A DNA stretch of 64,000 bases from a bacterium (lineage in GTDB: Bacteria > Patescibacteriota > Minisyncoccia > Phycocordibacterales > UBA12445): contig JAUSIP010000001.1 of NCBI GenBank assembly GCA_030648005.1, positions 6,662-70,661 of the forward strand, given 5' to 3'. The notes under the pieces are model-generated. The model searched no databases. It saw only the letters and a program-made list of their open reading frames with translations, and was not told where the DNA came from. The position numbers and the translations under genes were made by a program. Below are positions 5,399 to 55,073 of this stretch, piece by piece; within the stretch, counting starts at the first letter, position 1, and the number at the start of each line of letters is the position of its first letter.

Positions 5399-6730
5399 CT
5401 ATCCGCGTCGTTCTCCATCATCCTCAAATTTAAGTAGGACCCTGAATACCGGCGTTTTGCCGGCTAGCTCTTTGTCACCACCCTTCCAGATAGCCATCAC
5501 GACTCCGGAACCTTCGCCCATTTCAGATATTTCAGGAGTAAGCTTGCCTACGAAAATCCCGCTCGCATCTATTGTTCCAATAGGACCCACAACCCTCCAA
5601 TCTACGGAACTTGTGACATCCTCCTTGCTTCCATCACTTAAAACAAGCATCGCCCTAAAGGCAATTTTCTGCTGTTCTGCAAAATCAGAGTTAATGAAAG
5701 TTCTCGACTCTATAATAAGATCAACAGGAGTACCTCGCCTACTTCTTATTATCCCCCCGATCGGACTATCTATTCTCTGTTCAACATTGTTCAATATCTC
5801 TTTCTTAATTTCCGCCCTCACCTCAGCTCTTACCTCCGCTTTTTTTACCGGTTCCGTAATCTTTCTCTCAACTATTTCTCCCACTCTCCTCTCTTCTGTC
5901 TTAATATTAATTTTGGTCTTCAATTCAGTCCGAACTTCTCTCAATGAATCTTTAAGTAACTCCTCACGCAGTTTTTCCCTCAGAACTCCACGTGACTTCA
6001 GATCTTTCACTTGAACTTCGATCTTAGTATCCTCAGACTCGTTGGCATTCAACCACTCTTGATCTCTAGGCACGATACCCGCGCCTGCGCTAGCCGGACT
6101 AACTGCAACGTCCACAGCGACAACCACCTTTTTATTGACTCTAATCTTCTCAACATCATCATTGGTCCACTCGACAAATTTGCCTTCACTTAGAATTATC
6201 GGTTCTTTGCCGACTCGTTCTCCGGTCTTAGGGTCTATTACCTGGAGAGCAACTGTATGTTGGGATCCAAACATCTTAGAGTGCCCTCCCTCCGAACTCA
6301 TACCAAAAGCCGTACCACGTACGGTCGCCACGGCGTTGGATGTCTTCACCTCCCAGACTGAAGCCGGTGTGGCAAGATCTATCACCTTAGACCAAACTTT
6401 CCCGACCGCCAGGCTAACTTTGACAGAAATAGCTCCGCTTGCTTTGTCGTAATTTCCATCATTCAAGGTGATTGTGGTGCCAGAATCCAAACGAAGCACC
6501 GAGCCGTCCAAGAAGTGCACCTTAGCCTCTCCATCGGTGCTTACTACGAGAGTTATCGGGTAGTCCAAACTGTCTCCACTTTTAAGACCAGAAACTTCCC
6601 CCTTAGTGATAGTTATCCACGGCTTTGTCGGAAGCTCTACAACGGGTGGAATCTCCTTTCCATCACCACCCACTAAAGACAGAAACAAAATAGGGATGAA
6701 TAAAACCGCTGCAATAAATATATTTTTCAT
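5399..6730 (-). CDS. FecR-domain secreted protein with C-terminal Big_2-like domain
   Basis: Signal peptide; VKTSNAVATVRGTAFGM (FecR-like); C-terminal Ig-like segment; adjacent to the CHASE2 cyclase. Confidence 0.6.
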   Translation of the reverse strand: MKNIFIAAVLFIPILFLSLVGGDGKEIPPVVELPTKPWITITKGEVSGLKSGDSLDYPITLVVSTDGEAKVHFLDGSVLRLDSGTTITLNDGNYDKASGAISVKVSLAVGKVWSKVIDLATPASVWEVKTSNAVATVRGTAFGMSSEGGHSKMFGSQHTVALQVIDPKTGERVGKEPIILSEGKFVEWTNDDVEKIRVNKKVVVAVDVAVSPASAGAGIVPRDQEWLNANESEDTKIEVQVKDLKSRGVLREKLREELLKDSLREVRTELKTKINIKTEERRVGEIVERKITEPVKKAEVRAEVRAEIKKEILNNVEQRIDSPIGGIIRSRRGTPVDLIIESRTFINSDFAEQQKIAFRAMLVLSDGSKEDVTSSVDWRVVGPIGTIDASGIFVGKLTPEISEMGEGSGVVMAIWKGGDKELAGKTPVFRVLLKFEDDGERRG

Positions 6731-20992: not shown

Positions 20993-22413
20993 TGTCCTAT
21001 GCAAGGCACACCTCCTTCGTCCAGTATCACCTTGATCGGCCATTCAGCGATCTTGTGCAGAGCCGTCTGATCTTCGTAACCTTCGAAAAGCCAACGAGTG
21101 AAGTAGCCGATGCCGTCTGCGTATCGATGCTCCTTGATCGCATCCTTGATCGCCGTGCCGGCATTGCCAAAACAGGGCGTGCCTTCTTTATTGATATGAG
21201 GATGAGGAACTCCTTCCGGATGAAACCGATCGAGACTCCAGATATAGAAGTCGCCGTTTCTATGGATTGCGAAAGCGAACCTGCCAAGCTGATGAGTATT
21301 GCCCGCATTAGTAATGTCAGCTCCGATAGTAGTAACGCGGATCATATCTTCAGCAAGCGATAGTTCCGATACATATGGATTCGAACGGATCCTGCGCCAC
21401 TGCCCCTTGAGAGATCTGAACAATTCATCTTTGGGCAGGGCATTGCTTACTGTCTTACTCAAGCGCTGAAGATTGAAACATTCACGCTCATTGATAGCCA
21501 GAGTCATCCTCAGATCTTCAATCTCTTGTTGTATCTTCTGCACCTCTCTGTCTATGCCGCCACTGACGGTGCTTATCCATTTTGTTGTAACGTCGACAAA
21601 CCTCTTGCGATTCAGACGGAGCATTTTGTCAGATGGCTTAGCTCCACCTTGCAGAGCCTGATAACGGCGTAGGGTCACAGCCAGAGCATTATCCAAAATT
21701 TTCAAACTAGTAAGAGAATTGAAAAATTCAACCACGCAAAACAGAAAATACCAGTTATTGCCAACTATCTGCGCAAGATCGTTCTCCCCGTCGCCGACGA
21801 ACTCCCCTCTTCCGGGAGTACCGGAGAAGGTCAGAACACCGTTGCCTTCTTTGGTATCCAACTGAAGGTCGAAGGCGCGGCGTAGATACTTGCTCTTTGA
21901 ATATCCGGGCGAATAGCTCCAAGGGAAAATATTGATCAGATTAGGCTTGTCGGGTAGCGGAGGCCTACCTATATCGCGTTTCTCGGCGTAAAAATCTATG
22001 TCCAATCCTCCGGCAAGCCTAGAGAAATTCTCTAAGATAATTCTGATGCTGGAATAGGGAGCTTCTTCGATCGTCTTCTTATCGTCTTCCTTCTCTGACA
22101 AGGGGATGATCCTGATATTTCCGGTCTTGATCCCAACGTACGGAACAGTGCGATTGCCCCACTTGGCATTCTTGGCATTAATGACATTTGGGTAAGGAGC
22201 TTGCCCGATACCGACAATCAGAAGAACGTCAATGAAGGTCATCCTCGCTTCCGCCACATTCGCGCACTGGAAGATGTAAGCATCGAGCTCGTATGGCCCT
22301 ACTCGTACTGTCCGCCTCTTGAAAGGGATCCCCTTCTTTGTGAACTCTTGAGTATGAGGCTCAGCCACGAGAGCCGGCAAGGCGAAAATAGGTGTTTTCA
22401 GTCCGGGAACCAT
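20989..22413 (-). CDS. E2-like (UBC-fold) protein with ~330-aa N-terminal domain of unknown function
   Basis: C-terminal HPHINKEGTPC matches the UBC active site HPNINSNGSIC with identical spacing; RBS AAGGAGG; first gene of the operon. Confidence 0.6.
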   Translation of the reverse strand: MVPGLKTPIFALPALVAEPHTQEFTKKGIPFKRRTVRVGPYELDAYIFQCANVAEARMTFIDVLLIVGIGQAPYPNVINAKNAKWGNRTVPYVGIKTGNIRIIPLSEKEDDKKTIEEAPYSSIRIILENFSRLAGGLDIDFYAEKRDIGRPPLPDKPNLINIFPWSYSPGYSKSKYLRRAFDLQLDTKEGNGVLTFSGTPGRGEFVGDGENDLAQIVGNNWYFLFCVVEFFNSLTSLKILDNALAVTLRRYQALQGGAKPSDKMLRLNRKRFVDVTTKWISTVSGGIDREVQKIQQEIEDLRMTLAINERECFNLQRLSKTVSNALPKDELFRSLKGQWRRIRSNPYVSELSLAEDMIRVTTIGADITNAGNTHQLGRFAFAIHRNGDFYIWSLDRFHPEGVPHPHINKEGTPCFGNAGTAIKDAIKEHRYADGIGYFTRWLFEGYEDQTALHKIAEWPIKVILDEGGVPCIGQ

Positions 22414-22527
22414 CTCTGCCTCCTTTGGCCCTCCGTAGCTTTATGCGTAGGGGGCCTTTATTTCGTACAGTGTCAAGGAGCACTCAAACCGATGAGATAA
22501 TATCAGGAATAATTGATTTAGTCAATG

Positions 22528-22614
22528 CGGAGGTGGGAGGATTTGAACCTCCGATACCCTTTCGGGTATGCCAGTTTTCGAAACTGGTGATTTCAACCAC
22601 TCACCCACACCTCC
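22528..22614 (-). tRNA. tRNA-Ser (anticodon CGA), type II with long variable arm
   Basis: Hand fold: acceptor GGAGGTG/CACCTCC, anticodon loop TTCGAAA, T-arm GGAGGTTCAAATCCTCC, discriminator G, no encoded CCA. Confidence 0.85.
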
Positions 22615-22685
22615 AAGTTTAAGCGTTTAAATACTAACAGCATTTTGCATTTTTGACAAAATTTAGTATTATAACGAAACCTAAC

Positions 22686-22793
22686 GGCCCTATCGTTCCC
22701 GATTTTATTACGATTTCGTTACAGCGAAATCTCCATAAAATCGAGGATCCTCGACCCTGTGGGGTCGGGACTATCGGTTAGGACACGGCCTTT
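22686..22793 (+). pseudogene. orphan tRNA-Glu 5' half (to the anticodon loop) interrupted in the D-arm by a MITE
   Basis: GGCCCTATCGT + 75-bp element + CTATCGGTTAGGACACGGCCTTT is identical to positions 1-34 of tRNA-Glu at 22931; no 3' half follows. Confidence 0.7.
22697..22771. repeat. miniature inverted-repeat element, copy 2 (TCCCGATTTT...GGGGTCGGGAC)
   Basis: Shares its ends and the internal ATCGAGGATCC core with the copies at 2723 and 53662. Confidence 0.7.
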
Positions 22794-22915
22794 GAGAGGT
22801 GAGGATGGGGTAAGGGGTCCCATCCGCAAGACCTTTTGAGGTAGTTTGCGAGCTAGTGAAGCAAAATATCCAAAAGGTGTACTGCTCCCGTAGGGAGGGA
22901 AACGCAGTGAGGCAT
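22794..22915 (+). ncRNA. conserved structured element X between the orphan 5' half and tRNA-Glu
   Basis: GAGGTGAGG-hairpin-CGCAAGACCTTTTGAG...AATATCCAAAAGGTGTACTG-hairpin. A homolog lies upstream of tRNA-Gly (33021..33122) and shows compensatory hairpin changes. Confidence 0.5.
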
Positions 22916-22930
22916 TTTAAAAAACTATAC

Positions 22931-23002
22931 GGCCCTATCGTCTATCGGTTAGGACACGGCCTTTTCAAGGCTGGAAGCAGAGTTCGACTCTCTGTAGGGT
23001 CA
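22931..23002 (+). tRNA. tRNA-Glu (anticodon TTC)
   Basis: Hand fold: acceptor GGCCCTA/TAGGGTC, anticodon stem CGGCC/GGCTG, loop TTTTCAA, T-arm CAGAGTTCGACTCTCTG. Confidence 0.85.
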
Positions 23003-23139
23003 TTGCGAAGCAAGGAGACTAAGTGAATGAACTGCTTCATTCACGCCAGAGAGTCGAAGCCCGATTGAGATAGTTTATGATTCCGAGTTTATCGAGGAAG
23101 AAATAAAATATCCAATTGGGGTACTGTTCCTGTAAGGAA

Positions 23140-23158
23140 CGACTCTCTGTAGGGTCAT
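23140..23158 (+). repeat. direct orphan copy of the tRNA-Glu 3' end (CGACTCTCTGTAGGGTCAT)
   Basis: 19-nt identity with 22984..23003; preceded by the GGGTACTG-hairpin motif. Confidence 0.8.
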
Positions 23159-23172
23159 CGCGAAATACCACC

Positions 23173-24039
23173 ATGACTCATCAAATACTCTTATATTACA
23201 AATATATAAACATCGAGGACCCGGAAGCGCTGATGGCGTGGCAGAAGAAGCTGTGTGAAGAACTTACTCTAAAGGGTAGAATTATAATCGCCAAAGAGGG
23301 AATCAATGGCACGGTCGAAGGCACTAGAGAGAATACTGAAAGGTATATAGAAGCGATGAAGGCTGATCCCCTCTTTGCTGACGTTCACTGGAAGATAAGT
23401 GCGAGTGACGGATTGGCCTTTCCTAAACTATCTATCAAGGTCCGATCAGAGATAGTGAGCGCACATCTTGATGGCGAAGATGTGAATCCGACAGAAGTTA
23501 CCGGCAGACATTTGAATCCTGAAGAACTTCACGAACTTTTAAAAAGCGGCGAGGAAGTTTATGTCGTCGACATGAGGAATGACTATGAACACAGAGTCGG
23601 GCACTTTAAGAATTCAATACTTCCTCCATTAACCAACTTCCGAGATCTGCCGAAAATAATTCCGGAGCTTGAATATTTGAAAGACAAAAAGGTTGTGACA
23701 GTCTGTACTGGCGGCGTGCGGTGTGAGAAAGCTTCCGGCTATCTAATCAAGAAAGGATTTAAAGATGTCAGTCAGTTGAACGGCGGGATTGTATCGTACA
23801 TGGAGAAGTTCCCTAACCAATATTTCAAAGGTAAATTATATGTCTTTGATGGCCGAGTCACGATGGGCTTCGACACCGATAGTCCAGCACACGAAATAAT
23901 CGGACAATGTGATAAGTGTAATAAGCAAAGTGAGAATTACATAAACTGCAACAACAATCTCTGCCATCGCCATTTCATCTGCTGTGTAAACTGCATAGAA
24001 ACAAGCGGAGCCTTCTGCGGGGATCAGTGCAGAAATTGA
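23173..24039 (+). CDS. trhO: rhodanese-domain tRNA U34 hydroxylase TrhO/YceA (UPF0176) with Cys-rich C-terminus
   Basis: MTHQILLYYKY...AKEGINGTV, rhodanese CTGGVRCE; start at ATG 23173. Confidence 0.8.
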   Translation: MTHQILLYYKYINIEDPEALMAWQKKLCEELTLKGRIIIAKEGINGTVEGTRENTERYIEAMKADPLFADVHWKISASDGLAFPKLSIKVRSEIVSAHLDGEDVNPTEVTGRHLNPEELHELLKSGEEVYVVDMRNDYEHRVGHFKNSILPPLTNFRDLPKIIPELEYLKDKKVVTVCTGGVRCEKASGYLIKKGFKDVSQLNGGIVSYMEKFPNQYFKGKLYVFDGRVTMGFDTDSPAHEIIGQCDKCNKQSENYINCNNNLCHRHFICCVNCIETSGAFCGDQCRN

Positions 24040-24229: not shown

Positions 24230-24249
24230 CAACGAACGAAGTGAGGCGG

Positions 24250-24270
24250 GCACATGCCTGGACTCGAACC
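24250..24270 (+). repeat. inverted copy of the tRNA-Val T-arm/acceptor 3' strand (GCACATGCCTGGACTCGAACC)
   Basis: Reverse complement of 24209..24228 with one mismatch. Confidence 0.8.
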
Positions 24271-24349
24271 TCGAAAGGGGCCGGGAAAACTGTAGTTTTC
24301 CCGTGGAGGAAGGATTGGGAAAACCGTGGGTTTCCCAGTGTGTGAGTAC

Positions 24350-24364
24350 TCCAGGCATGCGCAC
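24350..24364 (+). repeat. direct orphan copy of the tRNA-Val 3' end (TCCAGGCATGCGCAC)
   Basis: 15-nt identity with 24216..24230. Confidence 0.8.
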
Positions 24365-29725: not shown

Positions 29726-29943
29726 TTGCCGAGGGAGAACGCCAACTGCTTGGCGTTCGTGCGGATTTGAAAGCCACAGCCATGTCCCATGGGGACAGGC
29801 GAGGCGGGGTCGAGAGTACTTAGTCCGCGCAATTTCGCTTTAGCGAAATGAGCAGACTTAGTAACTCGTGACCTAATCCCCCGAAGCTTGGTAAGGACAA
29901 TTTATTTGGAATTAAAATCGGCATAATTAAACAACCGGTTGTT

Positions 29944-31055: not shown

Positions 31056-31654
31056 TAATTATATAATAACAAAAAAAGACCCCGGGGACAATCCCGGGGC
31101 CACAACCTCGCATGCTTAGCTAGCTACTCCTTTGACTACTTCGACCTCAGCCTTTTTTCTGCTCGATGCTCTCTTGCCACCAGATAAGATACCGGCACCA
31201 AGTACAAAACCGAAGTTATACCAACCACCATTGTTATGAACCTCATACAGACACACATCACTCGAGAAAAGCGAAATGATCCATGTGATCGGCGCGATTA
31301 TTCCGTGCTACAGACCGAGCCAGAACCCAGCAATATTTCCGTCCGAAGCTGGAACATTCACCGTAGTATTTGGACCGGGGGTACAACCAGTCAGAAGCAG
31401 TACCCCACCCAAGAACAATAGACCGAGCAAGTGTGTTTTCCTCATTGTTCCATCCTTCGAGTTAGAAACGTACACGATCTAGAGAATAGAGTATCATTTA
31501 TATTAAATAAGTCAATAACAAGGAATCTCGCCCTACGGGCGCTGGTACTTTTCGCTCCGATATCCATCGGAGAACGAAAAGTCTTTCGATTCCCCGGCGC
31601 AGGCAAAGCAGTTTGCCTGCTCGGGAGCACAAAAAACCGCTCCGCTCTTGTTTG

Positions 31655-32367: not shown

Positions 32368-32823
32368 TTACAGGTGACTGCTGGTCTCGGCAGTCGGCTG
32401 TCCGACAACCCCGTCCGTAGGCATGGATATGTCGAGCACCAGGTTCTCACAGGCCTTCGTCCATTCGGGTGTTCCCTGGTGATAAGCCTCGATCTTGCCC
32501 TTCTCCATCTGCCAAGAATTGCTGGGATTCAGATCGTCGAAGTCATATTCCAGATGAGAGATCCTTAGACCACGGAAGCTATTGAATCTTACGATCCAGA
32601 GCTTGTCGTTGTATCGGACCACATCTCCCGGCTTCAGGCTTCTAACCGTCTCGCCGTTCAGCATGGTCTGATGACCCTTACGCGCCCGTTCCCGAGCCTC
32701 GTCCATCTGCTCGGCTGGAGAGCGGGTATCCTTGTTGTGGAAGACCTCGCCAACAAGAACAAGGCAAAACAAGAGATAGATCATTATATAAAGAAGCTCC
32801 CACACCTTTTGACCCAGAGACAT
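32368..32823 (-). CDS. hypothetical membrane-anchored protein (GC-elevated)
   Basis: 151 aa, N-terminal TM helix; no family recognised. Confidence 0.45.
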   Translation of the reverse strand: MSLGQKVWELLYIMIYLLFCLVLVGEVFHNKDTRSPAEQMDEARERARKGHQTMLNGETVRSLKPGDVVRYNDKLWIVRFNSFRGLRISHLEYDFDDLNPSNSWQMEKGKIEAYHQGTPEWTKACENLVLDISMPTDGVVGQPTAETSSHL

Positions 32824-32939
32824 AATACTTCCTCCTTGAACTAGTAACGCAATCTATGTTTTCAAACCCTCTCTAGTTTTGCATATTATAGTGTAAAAGT
32901 CAATAGCTGAAAAAACCTTGTATTCTCTAACTACTTTTG

Positions 32940-33010
32940 TGCGGCCAGGGAGAATCGAACCCCCATCTAATGCTTGGGAAGCACTCATTTTACCACTAAA
33001 CTATGGCCGC
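32940..33010 (-). tRNA. tRNA-Gly (anticodon CCC)
   Basis: Hand fold: acceptor GCGGCCA/TGGCCGC, loop TTCCCAA, T-arm GGGGGTTCGATTCTCCC. Confidence 0.8.
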
Positions 33011-33020
33011 TTTTCTAAAT

Positions 33021-33156
33021 TAAATCTCATCCTTACAGGATCTGTACACCTTTTGGATATATTCTCGCACAAACTCAAATATATCTCAAAAGGTCTTGCG
33101 GCGCTAAGCGCGCCTCACCTCAGGAAGGTCGCATCCTACCACTGAACTATACCCGC
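33021..33156 (-). ncRNA. orphan tRNA 5' half (GCGGGTATAGTTCAGTGGTAGGATGCGACCTTCC) fused to conserved structured element X, immediately upstream of tRNA-Gly
   Basis: Minus-strand sequence TGAGGTGAGG-GGCGCGCTTAGCGCC-GCAAGACCTTTTGAG...AATATATCCAAAAGGTGTACAG-ATCCTGTAAGGAT is homologous to 22794..22915. Confidence 0.55.
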
Positions 33157-33163
33157 TTAAAAA

Positions 33164-33502
33164 CTATTTTGTAAAAAAATCCAGAAAACTATCCCAGTAG
33201 CTCTTATTGTCACTCACTTCAGGTTTCTTATCGCTAACCTCATCTACCACCACAAGCACCTCCTCGCCCAACTTTGTGATCTGGAATTTATTGCGGAGTT
33301 CTTCTTCTACCCCTCTTTCTGTTTTAAGCCTCTCCAGTTCTGCGATCAAGCGATCACGGTTATCCTGCAAAAGAGCTAGCTTCTTCTCCGACTCCTCCCT
33401 ATTCATCTTAGTTATCTGGTTAGTTTTGTAAATATTGTAATCGCTATTGATTAGTAAGACAACAATGATCAACAGTACTCCTATCATTATTGGAGACTGC
33501 AT
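33164..33502 (-). CDS. FtsB/DivIC-like septum formation initiator (TM plus coiled coil)
   Basis: Start ATG 33502 with RBS AAGGTGGA; TM helix then a heptad-rich segment. Confidence 0.5.
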   Translation of the reverse strand: MQSPIMIGVLLIIVVLLINSDYNIYKTNQITKMNREESEKKLALLQDNRDRLIAELERLKTERGVEEELRNKFQITKLGEEVLVVVDEVSDKKPEVSDNKSYWDSFLDFFTK

Positions 33503-53810: not shown

Positions 53811-53948
53811 AGTGAGCGAAGCGAACGCTCCACGAGCAAGCAAACTGCTTTGCTTGCGTGGTAGGATTCGAAAAGGTTCTCCGTTATCCGATGGCAATCG
53901 GATCGGAAACCTGTACCGTTCATGTAATGAAAGAATCCTTCTAAAAAA

Positions 53949-54566
53949 ATGAAAAACCCCAAAGTAATAATCTACGACAACGACGGAATGATCTGCCATA
54001 GTGGCCGATTTAGCGACAGTTATTCTAAGGAGTTTGGGATTGAGATGGATATAATGAGTCCCTTTTTCGAAGGACCATTTAAAAACTGTCTCGTTGGAAA
54101 AGCAGACCTGAAAGAGGAGTTAGAAAAAGTTTTAGATATATGGAACTGGAAAGGGACAGCCAACCAGCTTCTTGATTACTGGTTTTCAGTAGGAAGCACG
54201 CTCGACGAGAAAGTTTTCCCTACTATTTCAAAATTTAAAGATCAAGGTCTAATAGTATGTCTGGCAACTAATCAGGAAAAATATCGAAAAGAATATTTAG
54301 TTACAAAATTTGGATACGACAAAGTATTTAATGAAATCTTTTCTTCTGCAGAACTAGGCGCTTATAAGAACAGCGAGAAGGGTCTCCAAAAAACTTTCGA
54401 CATCTTGAAAGATAAATATGGCATTGAAGATAGAGACGAGATCATGTACTGGGATGACCGAGAAGGAAATGTTGAACATATAAATCAGTTTGGTATGAAC
54501 GGTCAGCATTATAAAAATTATGAGGAGTTTAGGGATGTAATGGCCGGTCTTGGCTACTTAGTTTAA
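53949..54566 (+). CDS. HAD-superfamily hydrolase
   Basis: IIYDNDGMI (motif I), LATNQ, WDD. Confidence 0.6.
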   Translation: MKNPKVIIYDNDGMICHSGRFSDSYSKEFGIEMDIMSPFFEGPFKNCLVGKADLKEELEKVLDIWNWKGTANQLLDYWFSVGSTLDEKVFPTISKFKDQGLIVCLATNQEKYRKEYLVTKFGYDKVFNEIFSSAELGAYKNSEKGLQKTFDILKDKYGIEDRDEIMYWDDREGNVEHINQFGMNGQHYKNYEEFRDVMAGLGYLV

Positions 54567-54570
54567 TTTT

Positions 54571-54972
54571 ATGCAAAATAAAACAACTCACGAATCATTT
54601 GTTTTAAGACAATCCACACTTCCAAGTGCAGGAATCGGAGTGATTACCTTACACGACATAGCCAAGGGTACATATATGGAGCTTTTTCGTGATGGTTTTG
54701 AGGAGGAAATTAGGGATGAGTCTGATGTGCCGAAGCCACTCAGGGCATACTGTCTCTATCAGGGTAATGGCAAGATCTTATGTCCAAAAATGTTCAATCG
54801 TATGGATATCGGAAATTATCTCAATCACTCAGAGAACTGGAATATGGTCTATGAAAAAGGCAGGGGTTACTTTGCTTCTCGAGATATTAGAGCCGGAGAG
54901 GAACTCTTTGCCAACTATAGAGATCTGGGAGAGCCCGAAGACCAGAGAGAGGAGTATTACAAGGTGCATTAA
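54571..54972 (+). CDS. SET-domain protein (putative lysine methyltransferase)
   Basis: NHSENWN and GEELFANY motifs. Confidence 0.6.
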   Translation: MQNKTTHESFVLRQSTLPSAGIGVITLHDIAKGTYMELFRDGFEEEIRDESDVPKPLRAYCLYQGNGKILCPKMFNRMDIGNYLNHSENWNMVYEKGRGYFASRDIRAGEELFANYRDLGEPEDQREEYYKVH

Positions 54973-55043
54973 TACTTTGACCTTCAGCATTTCTTGGAGC
55001 AGAGCGAGTACGATGCGAAAGGTGTACTGTTCCCGTAATGAAA

Positions 55044-55061
55044 GAATCCTACCCGGGGAGC
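55044..55061 (+). repeat. direct orphan copy of the tRNA-Asn 3' end (GAATCCTACCCGGGGAGC)
   Basis: 18-nt identity with 53791..53808; preceded by the GGTGTACTG-hairpin motif. Confidence 0.8.
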
Positions 55062-55073
55062 AAAAATAAAATA

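Follow-up and report, generated by a model that had tools for sequence, protein, structure and literature searches.

The 64,000-nucleotide stretch analyzed here (the window; positions 6,662 to 70,661 of contig JAUSIP010000001.1, assembly GCA_030648005.1, a bacterium of the Patescibacteriota) carries members of a family of folded, non-coding elements of approximately 75-130 bases. The family is previously uncatalogued, large and specific to Patescibacteria, the bacteria of the candidate phyla radiation (CPR). Two copies, termed c1 and c2, had been described in an earlier note, made from the sequence alone, as a conserved RNA-like element upstream of tRNA-Glu and tRNA-Gly. We favor the reading that c1 and c2 are small non-coding integrative mobile elements with a folded single-stranded core, inserted by a Campbell-type event, and we give this reading as a whole about an even chance of being correct.

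All sequence motifs that the earlier note assigned to c1 and c2 were confirmed at both loci. The 18-mer pattern AATATCCAAAAGGTGTAC (up to three mismatches) matched three times in the window against 0.07 matches expected, and the third match led to a full copy, c3, directly 3' of tRNA-Glu. A core of 73 positions is common to c1, c2 and c3. The covariance model R1, built from an alignment (A2) of 107 distinct cores, scored the core of c1 (22826-22897, plus strand) at 83.1 bits (E=3.6e-15), that of c3 (23055-23139, plus strand) at 80.2 bits and that of c2 (33099-33029, minus strand) at 74.2 bits (E=2.5e-13). Three weaker relatives were also recovered, which brings the tally to three strong and three weak copies in 64 kb: c4 after tRNA-Asn (53869-53931, 25.2 bits, E=0.003), c5 after tRNA-Arg(CCU) (31587-31529, 20.3 bits) and c6 (54975-55042, 18.4 bits). 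The earlier note had overlooked c3, the duplicated tRNA-Glu 3' fragment at 23140-23157 and the relatives following tRNA-Asn and tRNA-Arg.

Each of the two initial copies stands between an orphan tRNA half and an intact tRNA gene (the latter identified by ARAGORN and Rfam). The orphan half at c1 (22686-22793, plus strand) represents positions 1-34 of tRNA-Glu(UUC) in two blocks: 22686-22696 matches positions 1-11 of the intact tRNA, and 22771-22793 is identical in 23 of 23 nucleotides to 22942-22964 of the intact gene (positions 12-34). The blocks are separated by a 74-nt structured insertion (22697-22770, plus strand) with three predicted hairpins, which splits the D arm of the half and for which no second copy was found within the window. 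The half is followed by the 5' module of c1 (22794-22825, plus strand), composed of GAGAGGUGAGG, a variable hairpin (hp) and CGCAAG, by the core and, 15 nt beyond the element, by the intact tRNA-Glu(UUC) (22931-23002, plus strand), which lies between c1 and c3. The same order is found on the minus strand at c2, where an orphan half of tRNA-Gly (33123-33156, positions 1-35, approximately 74% identical to the intact gene over 34 nt, counted by eye) precedes a 5' module of UGAGGUGAGG and the hairpin GCGCGCUUAGCGC (33100-33122), the core and, after 10 nt, the intact tRNA-Gly(CCC) (32939-33010). The spacing of 15-25 nt given previously is thus corrected to 15 and 10 nt. Both halves are real, identity to the 5' part of the neighboring tRNA ending at a sharp break, and neither is called as a tRNA by ARAGORN or Rfam. 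The proposed break within the anticodon loop is borne out for both, at 35/36 in tRNA-Gly and, as a corrected position, at 34/35 in tRNA-Glu.

The third copy follows its tRNA. The left arm of c3 (23003-23056, plus strand) contains the tRNA trailer, a hairpin hp at 23023-23044 and a segment, seg2 (CAGAGAGUCG, 23047-23056), that is complementary to the T-loop and the 3' strand of the T-stem of the tRNA. Downstream of the core, the 3' part of tRNA-Glu is directly duplicated. This copy, termed X (23140-23164, plus strand; 96% identical to 22985-23009 over 25 nt), begins at T-loop C56 and includes the discriminator and approximately 7 nt of trailer. Seg2 and the first part of X (23140-23149) form a 10-bp closing helix (CAGAGAGUCG/CGACUCUCUG), which turns the core into a three-way junction. 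The helix Pa of the c3 core, CCCGAUUG/CAAUUGGG, is a compensatory variant of ACCUUUUG/CAAAAGGU in c1 and c2.

Species-representative genomes were scanned with the pattern TTGAGN{20,50}ATATCCAANNGGNGTACNG, which yielded at least 117 loci; loci collected from other genomes are referred to below by L-numbers (e.g. L009, L117). Among the matches listed, all but approximately four chance ones came from Patescibacteria, including Paceibacterota, Kaiser-, Taylor-, Nomura- and Zambryskibacteria and Saccharibacteria, and several genomes carried multiple copies. As lower bounds, more than 110 true copies are present in more than 90 other genomes. R1 found 126 matches in 96 CPR loci of the matches listed, approximately 26 of them without the exact search pattern, while none of 70 pattern matches in viral contigs passed R1 and no R1 match was found in 650 kb around the leucyl-tRNA synthetase (LeuRS) genes of the nearest metagenomic relatives. 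The Rfam search that the earlier note had proposed was run with Rfam 15 at gathering and permissive E thresholds and covered the whole window, the regions of the elements, the large composites and 18 related loci. It returned tRNAs, rRNAs and one unrelated group I intron, with no family matching the element; no known ribozyme or intron family fits it, and a ribozyme or processing role is no more than possible. No description of the element was found in the literature searched, in which the one related paper concerns canonical group I introns. Chance resemblance or a single recent segmental duplication would explain nothing beyond the initial observation of two copies. Given the three matches against 0.07 expected, E values of 1e-13 to 1e-15, the number of copies and genomes and the unrelated flanks of c1 and c2, we regard this explanation as practically negligible.

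In the core, Pa, of 8 bp, carries the hairpin Pb stacked on it via a single bulged A; Pb holds an internal motif GAG/CGAA, which would correspond to tandem sheared G-A pairs with a bulged A, and an invariant GUACUG linker runs into Pc, a 5-bp hairpin with a GUA loop. In A2, columns 11-15 and 58-76 were set by the search pattern and the evidence comes from the free columns, namely Pc, upper Pb and the center of Pa. Paired cells amounted to 94.7%, against 74.9 ± 0.6% in shuffled alignments and at most 51.7% with slid partners, and 475 cells had changed on both sides against 133 in shuffled alignments. For Pc, 98.7% of cells were paired and each of the five pairs shows all four Watson-Crick types. 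G-U and U-G cells outnumber A-C and C-A cells 78:17, and because of this ratio the fold was assigned to the tRNA-sense strand. Single-sequence folds of c1 to c5 give the same architecture (z = -3.7 to -6.7; c1 -3.7, c2 -5.2, c4 -5.4, c5 -4.7), and the sequences of the junctions and internal loops are very well conserved. Both the long-range helix proposed from two sequences (ACCUUUUG/CAAAAGGU, i.e. Pa) and the last hairpin (Pc) are thereby confirmed, with covariation over the 107 sequences. The first hairpin with retained pairing (hp) likewise recurs: among 32 copies of the c1 and c2 type, 28 form a stem of 4 bp or more, with unrelated sequences. The earlier note had named a lack of further copies and covariation, or a single duplication, as outcomes that would speak against a conserved structured element with true compensatory changes; many more copies and strong covariation were found.

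Two arrangements relative to tRNA genes were distinguished. Of approximately 117 matches listed, 72 are adjacent to tRNAs, and about two thirds abut a tRNA on the same strand. In type B, to which c3, c4 and c5 belong, the element follows an intact same-strand tRNA of almost any identity (62 copies among the matches listed), with the tRNA end 70-150 nt upstream of the conserved motif. The order is tRNA, trailer (often a terminator-like hairpin), a segment seg1, a hairpin in the frame AG-hp-CG, seg2, core, Pc and X. Seg1 is the reverse complement of the 3' strand of the acceptor stem, in a palindrome that extends through the trailer; seg2 is the reverse complement of the T-stem 3' strand plus CGA; and X is a direct tRNA copy from T-loop C56 onwards, whose extension into the trailer varies between 0 and more than 44 nt. 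As in c3, pairing of seg2 with X makes the core a three-way junction. Inverted segments held in pairing by covariation on one strand were observed in the closing helix between X and its antisense copy X' and in the core, the latter also showing the G-U asymmetry. In addition, mismatches between seg2 and the duplicated X are wobble pairs in 17 cases and A-C in 7, compared to 7:8 for mismatches between seg2 and the tRNA, a bias that hints faintly at a closing helix formed on a single strand.

In type A (c1, c2 and approximately 30 others), the module GGGUGAG-hp-CGCAAGACC is located immediately 5' of Pa and recurs in 32 copies. Some type A copies have complementary flanks (L010, L036, L096, L110), and L096 and L110 differ there by one compensatory change. 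In other type A copies, the element adjoins a direct repeat of the 5' portion of an intact tRNA located downstream. The break point varies: it is in the D arm in L111, in the anticodon loop in c1 and c2, in the variable loop in L102 and in the T-loop in L037 and L075. In the family as a whole, the T-loop of an intact tRNA upstream of the element is the commonest context. An orphan tRNA half broken in the anticodon loop, as seen at c1 and c2, is therefore not the defining context of the family. A direct repeat of a tRNA segment starting at the T-loop or anticodon loop, together with an intact tRNA, was found at the 62 type B copies, at c3 and, in mirror orientation, at c1 and c2. One rare type A copy (L058) lies between two antisense tRNA-Glu 3' parts, with a core antisense to the neighboring tRNA gene and still flanked by tRNA 3' repeats; therefore, the orientation relative to the target is not absolute. 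Non-tRNA sites are the 3' ends of rplK (six genomes), rplL, rpsI, lepA and other genes, where the last codons (X) are followed in turn by a complementary segment (X'), the core and the gene end once more, in diverged form. In the rplK copies, the complementarity of X and X' is kept while X changes.

The anticodon-loop breaks raise the possibility that c1 and c2 are decayed group I introns of tRNA-Glu and tRNA-Gly. Group I introns in tRNAs of Patescibacteria insert at 33/34 and 35/36 (PMC13011429, Nakagawa et al. 2026), the breaks at 34/35 and 35/36 fall where such introns insert, and a U is the last nucleotide of each 5' part or adjoins it. We consider this origin very improbable. The group I model RF00028 matched neither c1, c2 nor c3 (22400-23400 and 32700-33400, E <=10), nor composites at L066, L067 and L071 (E <=1), but does detect a true intron in L064. 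Moreover, the core spans 73 positions, c1 and c2 are followed by a spacer and a complete tRNA with no 3' exon, and most family members reside in T-loops after intact tRNAs or at the ends of protein genes.

Several signs of mobility accompany the elements. In element-bearing loci, 53 of 148 tRNAs have a direct copy of their 3' end within 450 nt downstream, versus 1 of 27 in loci of relatives. The direct repeats range from approximately 18 to 95 nt (63 in L045, 34 in L014, 30 in L029, about 95 in L064 and a perfect 36 in L116), with one boundary fixed in the T-loop and the other variable. Tandem units occur in L018 (three of 320 nt), L064 (two, the second decayed) and L116, and one trailer with its element is found behind two isoacceptors, tRNA-Arg(GCG) and tRNA-Arg(UCU), in different genomes. 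Nesting is represented by type A cores inside an unrelated module, D (L066, L067, L071), and the orphan Glu half holds its own 74-nt insertion. In arrays at tRNA-Asn (the window and L117), remnants of the core, Pc and a further copy of X come after each cargo gene. In the window, c4 (53828-53941, plus strand) comprises seg1, AG-hp-CG, seg2, the variant core and a decayed X in the same architecture. Between it and a second tRNA-Asn 3' end lies cargo of two small genes (53949-54972, plus strand) for a weakly matching HAD-like hydrolase and a SET-domain protein. This 1.1-kb segment is closed by c6 (54975-55063, plus strand), a partial core 3' half with Pc and a near-perfect tRNA-Asn 3' copy (55042-55063, tRNA positions 54-75). 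The L117 array has four units with an NYN-domain gene and genes without assignment. The variant seen in c4 is also that of c5 (31519-31630, minus strand), the hp region of which is 92% identical to that of c4. Finally, the nearest relative with conserved synteny (L189; LeuRS 60% identical) has tRNA-Ser on the minus strand, tRNA-Glu on the plus strand and tRNA-Val at the corresponding locus, where no element, orphan half or antisense copy was detected.

The displaced copies differ in their state of decay: approximately 25 of 57 are identical to the tRNA and the rest have decayed. Where tRNA and displaced copy differ, seg2 matches the intact tRNA 18:5 and seg1 does so 9:0. Conservation of the core contrasts with the decay of orphan fragments. 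A second strain (Logan SRR13727527) carries c2 unchanged, and its orphan Gly half has 4 substitutions in 34 positions, clustered in the D arm (L269 2919-2952 versus 33156-33123 of the window); the substitutions may represent a gene-conversion tract from another tRNA-Gly gene. The flanking intergenic DNA of the two strains is also identical.

Direct repeats that run from the T-loop or anticodon loop to the end of a tRNA gene mark integrase-mediated insertion (Williams 2002, NAR). The repeats described above carry this textbook signature, and the tRNA-Asn cargo arrays resemble tandem accretion. The copies could hence be ordinary attL/attR scars of tyrosine-integrase islands or prophages, the core being a double-stranded attP arm region with protein-binding sites. 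Compensatory changes and an excess of G-U over A-C are unexpected for double-stranded protein sites, and the integrase arm site suggested in the earlier note, taken in its usual double-stranded sense, does not fit them. Most units are only about 95-320 nt long and lack an integrase, the core-type inverted repeat would lie 70-110 nt from the crossover unless the strand folds, the length of the direct repeat is highly variable and the pattern matches in viral contigs fail R1. Taken together, scars of this kind are an improbable explanation.

Of the candidates named in the earlier note, the small mobile element fits best: targets are duplicated, units occur in tandem, nested in one another and in arrays with cargo, and relatives have empty sites. 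The mobile unit would most aptly be described as a circularly permutable module of X, a trailer or terminator hairpin, antisense X', hp, core and Pc. Campbell-type recombination between the host-gene segment carried by the unit, presumably as a circular intermediate, and the resident gene would regenerate an intact gene on one side and displace the old segment to the other. In type B, a junction within the tRNA T-loop (TT|CGA) would leave an intact tRNA, the element and a displaced tRNA 3' copy, with X' pairing with X and closing the core as a three-way junction. In type A, the homology would be the tRNA 5' part, leaving a decaying 5' half upstream and an intact tRNA, possibly with a new promoter, downstream; since the carried segment would be a 5' part, the orphan half would lie upstream, as at c1 and c2. 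Tandem units would arise by unequal exchange between repeats and arrays by successive events. The antisense copy would let a single strand fold so that X':X rebuilds a target-like duplex with the conserved core at its tip, and the fold might serve as a recombination substrate or another cis-acting signal for mobility, acted on in trans by an enzyme encoded elsewhere. Such a Campbell-type event explains every arrangement observed.

A bolder version, which we hold to be unlikely, is that the three-way-junction core is the active part of a new class of mobile or catalytic element based on RNA or folded single-stranded DNA and lacking a protein of its own, for example a small ribozyme or a circular replicon-like unit. 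A stem copied from the acceptor/T-arm half of a tRNA would direct insertion and excision at T-loops and terminator hairpins, possibly by exploiting tRNA-processing enzymes. If true, the element and two further modules, C and D, would form a system of T-loop-docked structured nucleic acids in CPR bacteria.

These modules show that several unrelated sequences occupy the same tRNA frame. Downstream of tRNA-Val(GAC) (24248-24364, plus strand), an uninterrupted 26-nt antisense copy of the tRNA's own 3' part (24248-24273) precedes module C, a different conserved sequence of approximately 73 nt (CCUCGAAAGGGGCCGGGAAAACUGUAGUUUUCCCGUGGAGGAAGGAUUGGGAAAACCGUGGGUUUCCCAG...), and a direct copy of the 3' part (24347-24364). 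Module C was also found after tRNA-His in L077, and part of it after a type A copy in L068. Downstream of tRNA-Phe (29728-29887, plus strand) lie a terminator, seg1-AG-hp-CG-seg2, module D of approximately 100 nt (AGCCACAG...GGCGAGGCGGGGUCG...long hairpin...CGUGACC) and a decayed tRNA 3' copy. Module D occurs after at least nine other tRNAs in other CPR genomes, forms the outer shell for the nested type A cores and matches no Rfam family. Six of the seven tRNA genes in the window (ARAGORN and Rfam) bear the element or one of these modules. An hp loop, AACUGCUU, is common to four modules of this genome (23023-23044, 53837-53856, 31619-31600 and 29738-29757), and other genomes have CUGGGAG or ACUAAAUGU; this sharing suggests concerted evolution or a genome-specific partner. 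A trailer motif, (A)ACGAACGAAGUGAG or AGUGAGCGAAGCGAACG, recurs between the tRNA 3' end and the antisense copy at tRNA-Val (24231-24247) and tRNA-Asn (53811-53827) in the window and at L014, L067, L076, L097, L100, L102, L103 and L115, and resembles the apical motif GAGCGAAGCGAA of hairpin Pb.

Many of the same observations would be expected of a host-beneficial cis-acting RNA that processes, stabilizes or insulates tRNA and ribosomal-protein transcripts, or of a new small ribozyme with such a role. The copied end of the neighboring gene would then supply the closing stem, with the duplicated fragments acting as structural components or arising as by-products. The strong strand-specific covariation with tolerated G-U pairs, the wobble bias between seg2 and the duplicated X and the very high conservation of junctions and internal loops all agree with this idea. 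The sites are ends of highly expressed genes (tRNAs, rplK, rplL, rpsI), and seg1, hp, seg2 and X of type B mimic the acceptor/T-arm half of a tRNA. Of the displaced copy, only the proximal 8-10 nt that close the three-way junction are conserved; between L009 and L091, just the proximal 8 nt, the part pairing with seg2, are kept. On the other hand, the tRNAs of the nearest relatives are naked while synteny is kept, and tRNA expression therefore does not depend on the element. The frame is shared by several unrelated modules, the tandem, nested and cargo-bearing forms are typical of mobile DNA, a terminator-like hairpin lies 5' of many type B copies, the downstream genes have no common function and no ribozyme or intron of Rfam matched even at E <=10. 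We therefore consider a host function possible but the less probable account. The two readings are not mutually exclusive, as a mobile element may need its own RNA.

Further points weigh against the preferred interpretation of c1 and c2 as mobile elements. No recombinase, transposase, reverse transcriptase or endonuclease gene was found linked to the element: the 95-320-nt units contain no open reading frame (ORF), the cargo encodes HAD-like, SET, NYN and unassigned proteins, and no such gene is among the top 25 Pfam families of the window, a list that does not amount to a complete negative; no search was made for a trans-acting enzyme encoded at another place in the genome. Presence/absence polymorphism between strains was not seen, exact-protein look-ups having returned only two short contigs, both of a single further sample, in which c2 is in place. 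Both c1 and c2 are without the closing stem found in most copies. The core is far more conserved than a purely selfish sequence needs, and the rplK copies of divergent lineages appear to be orthologs, pointing to long residence or a function for the host. At non-tRNA sites the element is co-oriented with the upstream gene 21:7, which fits a role at the transcript level as well as a mechanistic bias. With a terminator-like hairpin often placed between tRNA and element, transcription of type B copies is not assured.

Several other identities were rejected. Known small self-cleaving ribozymes (hammerhead, hepatitis delta virus-like, twister, twister-sister, pistol, hatchet and hairpin) gave no Rfam 15 match at E <=10, tRNA being the sole family matched, and by inspection the linkers of the core (AAG, GUACUG, none) do not fit the hammerhead three-way junction. 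A miniature inverted-repeat transposable element is not supported, as the inverted arms X' and X differ in each copy and derive from the neighboring gene, conserved terminal inverted repeats are absent and the target-site duplication (about 18-95 nt) is neither short nor of fixed length. A riboswitch or leader does not agree with the genes downstream of stand-alone copies, which have no relation to each other (enolase, secA, NUDIX, transferases and others), or with the location of the majority of copies at 3' ends. A second tRNA, duplicated in tandem and reduced in its arms, does not account for the seg1 palindrome, which extends through discriminator and trailer. Mimicry of an RNase P/CCA minihelix as the main function is weakened by the decay of the acceptor part of the displaced copy, of which the proximal 8-10 nt stay.

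Genomes of CPR bacteria are streamlined to approximately 1 Mb and thought to be poor in mobile DNA. If mobile, the element would represent a compact, protein-less integrative unit with an RNA-like fold, tractable for the study of site-specific insertion into tRNA genes directed by a folded strand, and might yield new chemistry of recombination or of ribozymes. Annotation of tRNAs is confused by the orphan halves and duplicated 3' fragments that the elements create, and the elements may break short-read assemblies, as exemplified by one Logan contig that ends inside tRNA-Gly next to c2. The covariance model now draws on more than 100 independent sequences and could be submitted as a new family.

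Among known systems, the group I introns in tRNAs of Patescibacteria share the phylum, the tRNA targets and, at c1 and c2, similar anticodon-loop breaks; the element is about a third of their size, lacks an RF00028 match and a 3' exon, and has the intact tRNA beside rather than around it. Mobile endonuclease genes and introns of organelles and phages likewise supply a new host-gene 3' end and leave the old end decaying, as seen here at rplK, rplL and a Cys-rich ORF in L023, but the element has neither an ORF nor an intron core. Repetitive extragenic palindromes and bacterial interspersed mosaic elements (REP/BIME) and palindromes derived from IS200/IS605 are also short, abundant, structured intergenic repeats at gene 3' ends that are recognized as single-strand hairpins and are co-oriented with transcription. 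The element differs in its larger multi-helix fold, long target duplications, tRNA specificity and target-derived arms, which REPs lack, and no RAYT/TnpA partner was identified.

In integron attC sites and the CTX-phi attP(+) hairpin, a folded single strand rebuilds a target-like recombination duplex. The element shares with them paired inverted segments able to rebuild such a duplex, covariation on one strand, an inverted copy with a spacer, a hybrid site at one junction after integration and cassette-like arrays. Relative to attC the arrangement is reversed, the stem being target-derived and variable and the tip conserved; the folded stem rebuilds half of a T-arm site, and the target is the T-loop of a tRNA instead of attI or dif. 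The likeness is one of logic, and a link of the element to IntI or Xer would be hypothetical. With tRNA-integrated islands and cis-mobilizable elements that use a tyrosine recombinase, the element has in common the junction in the T-loop or anticodon loop, the regenerated tRNA, the partial-tRNA direct repeat and the tandem accretion of cargo. It is set apart from them by units of approximately 95-320 nt without an integrase, an antisense copy of the att segment, a covarying folded core, repeats of variable length, sites at the 3' ends of protein genes and the displacement of tRNA 5' parts in type A, which to our knowledge is rare among known tRNA islands.

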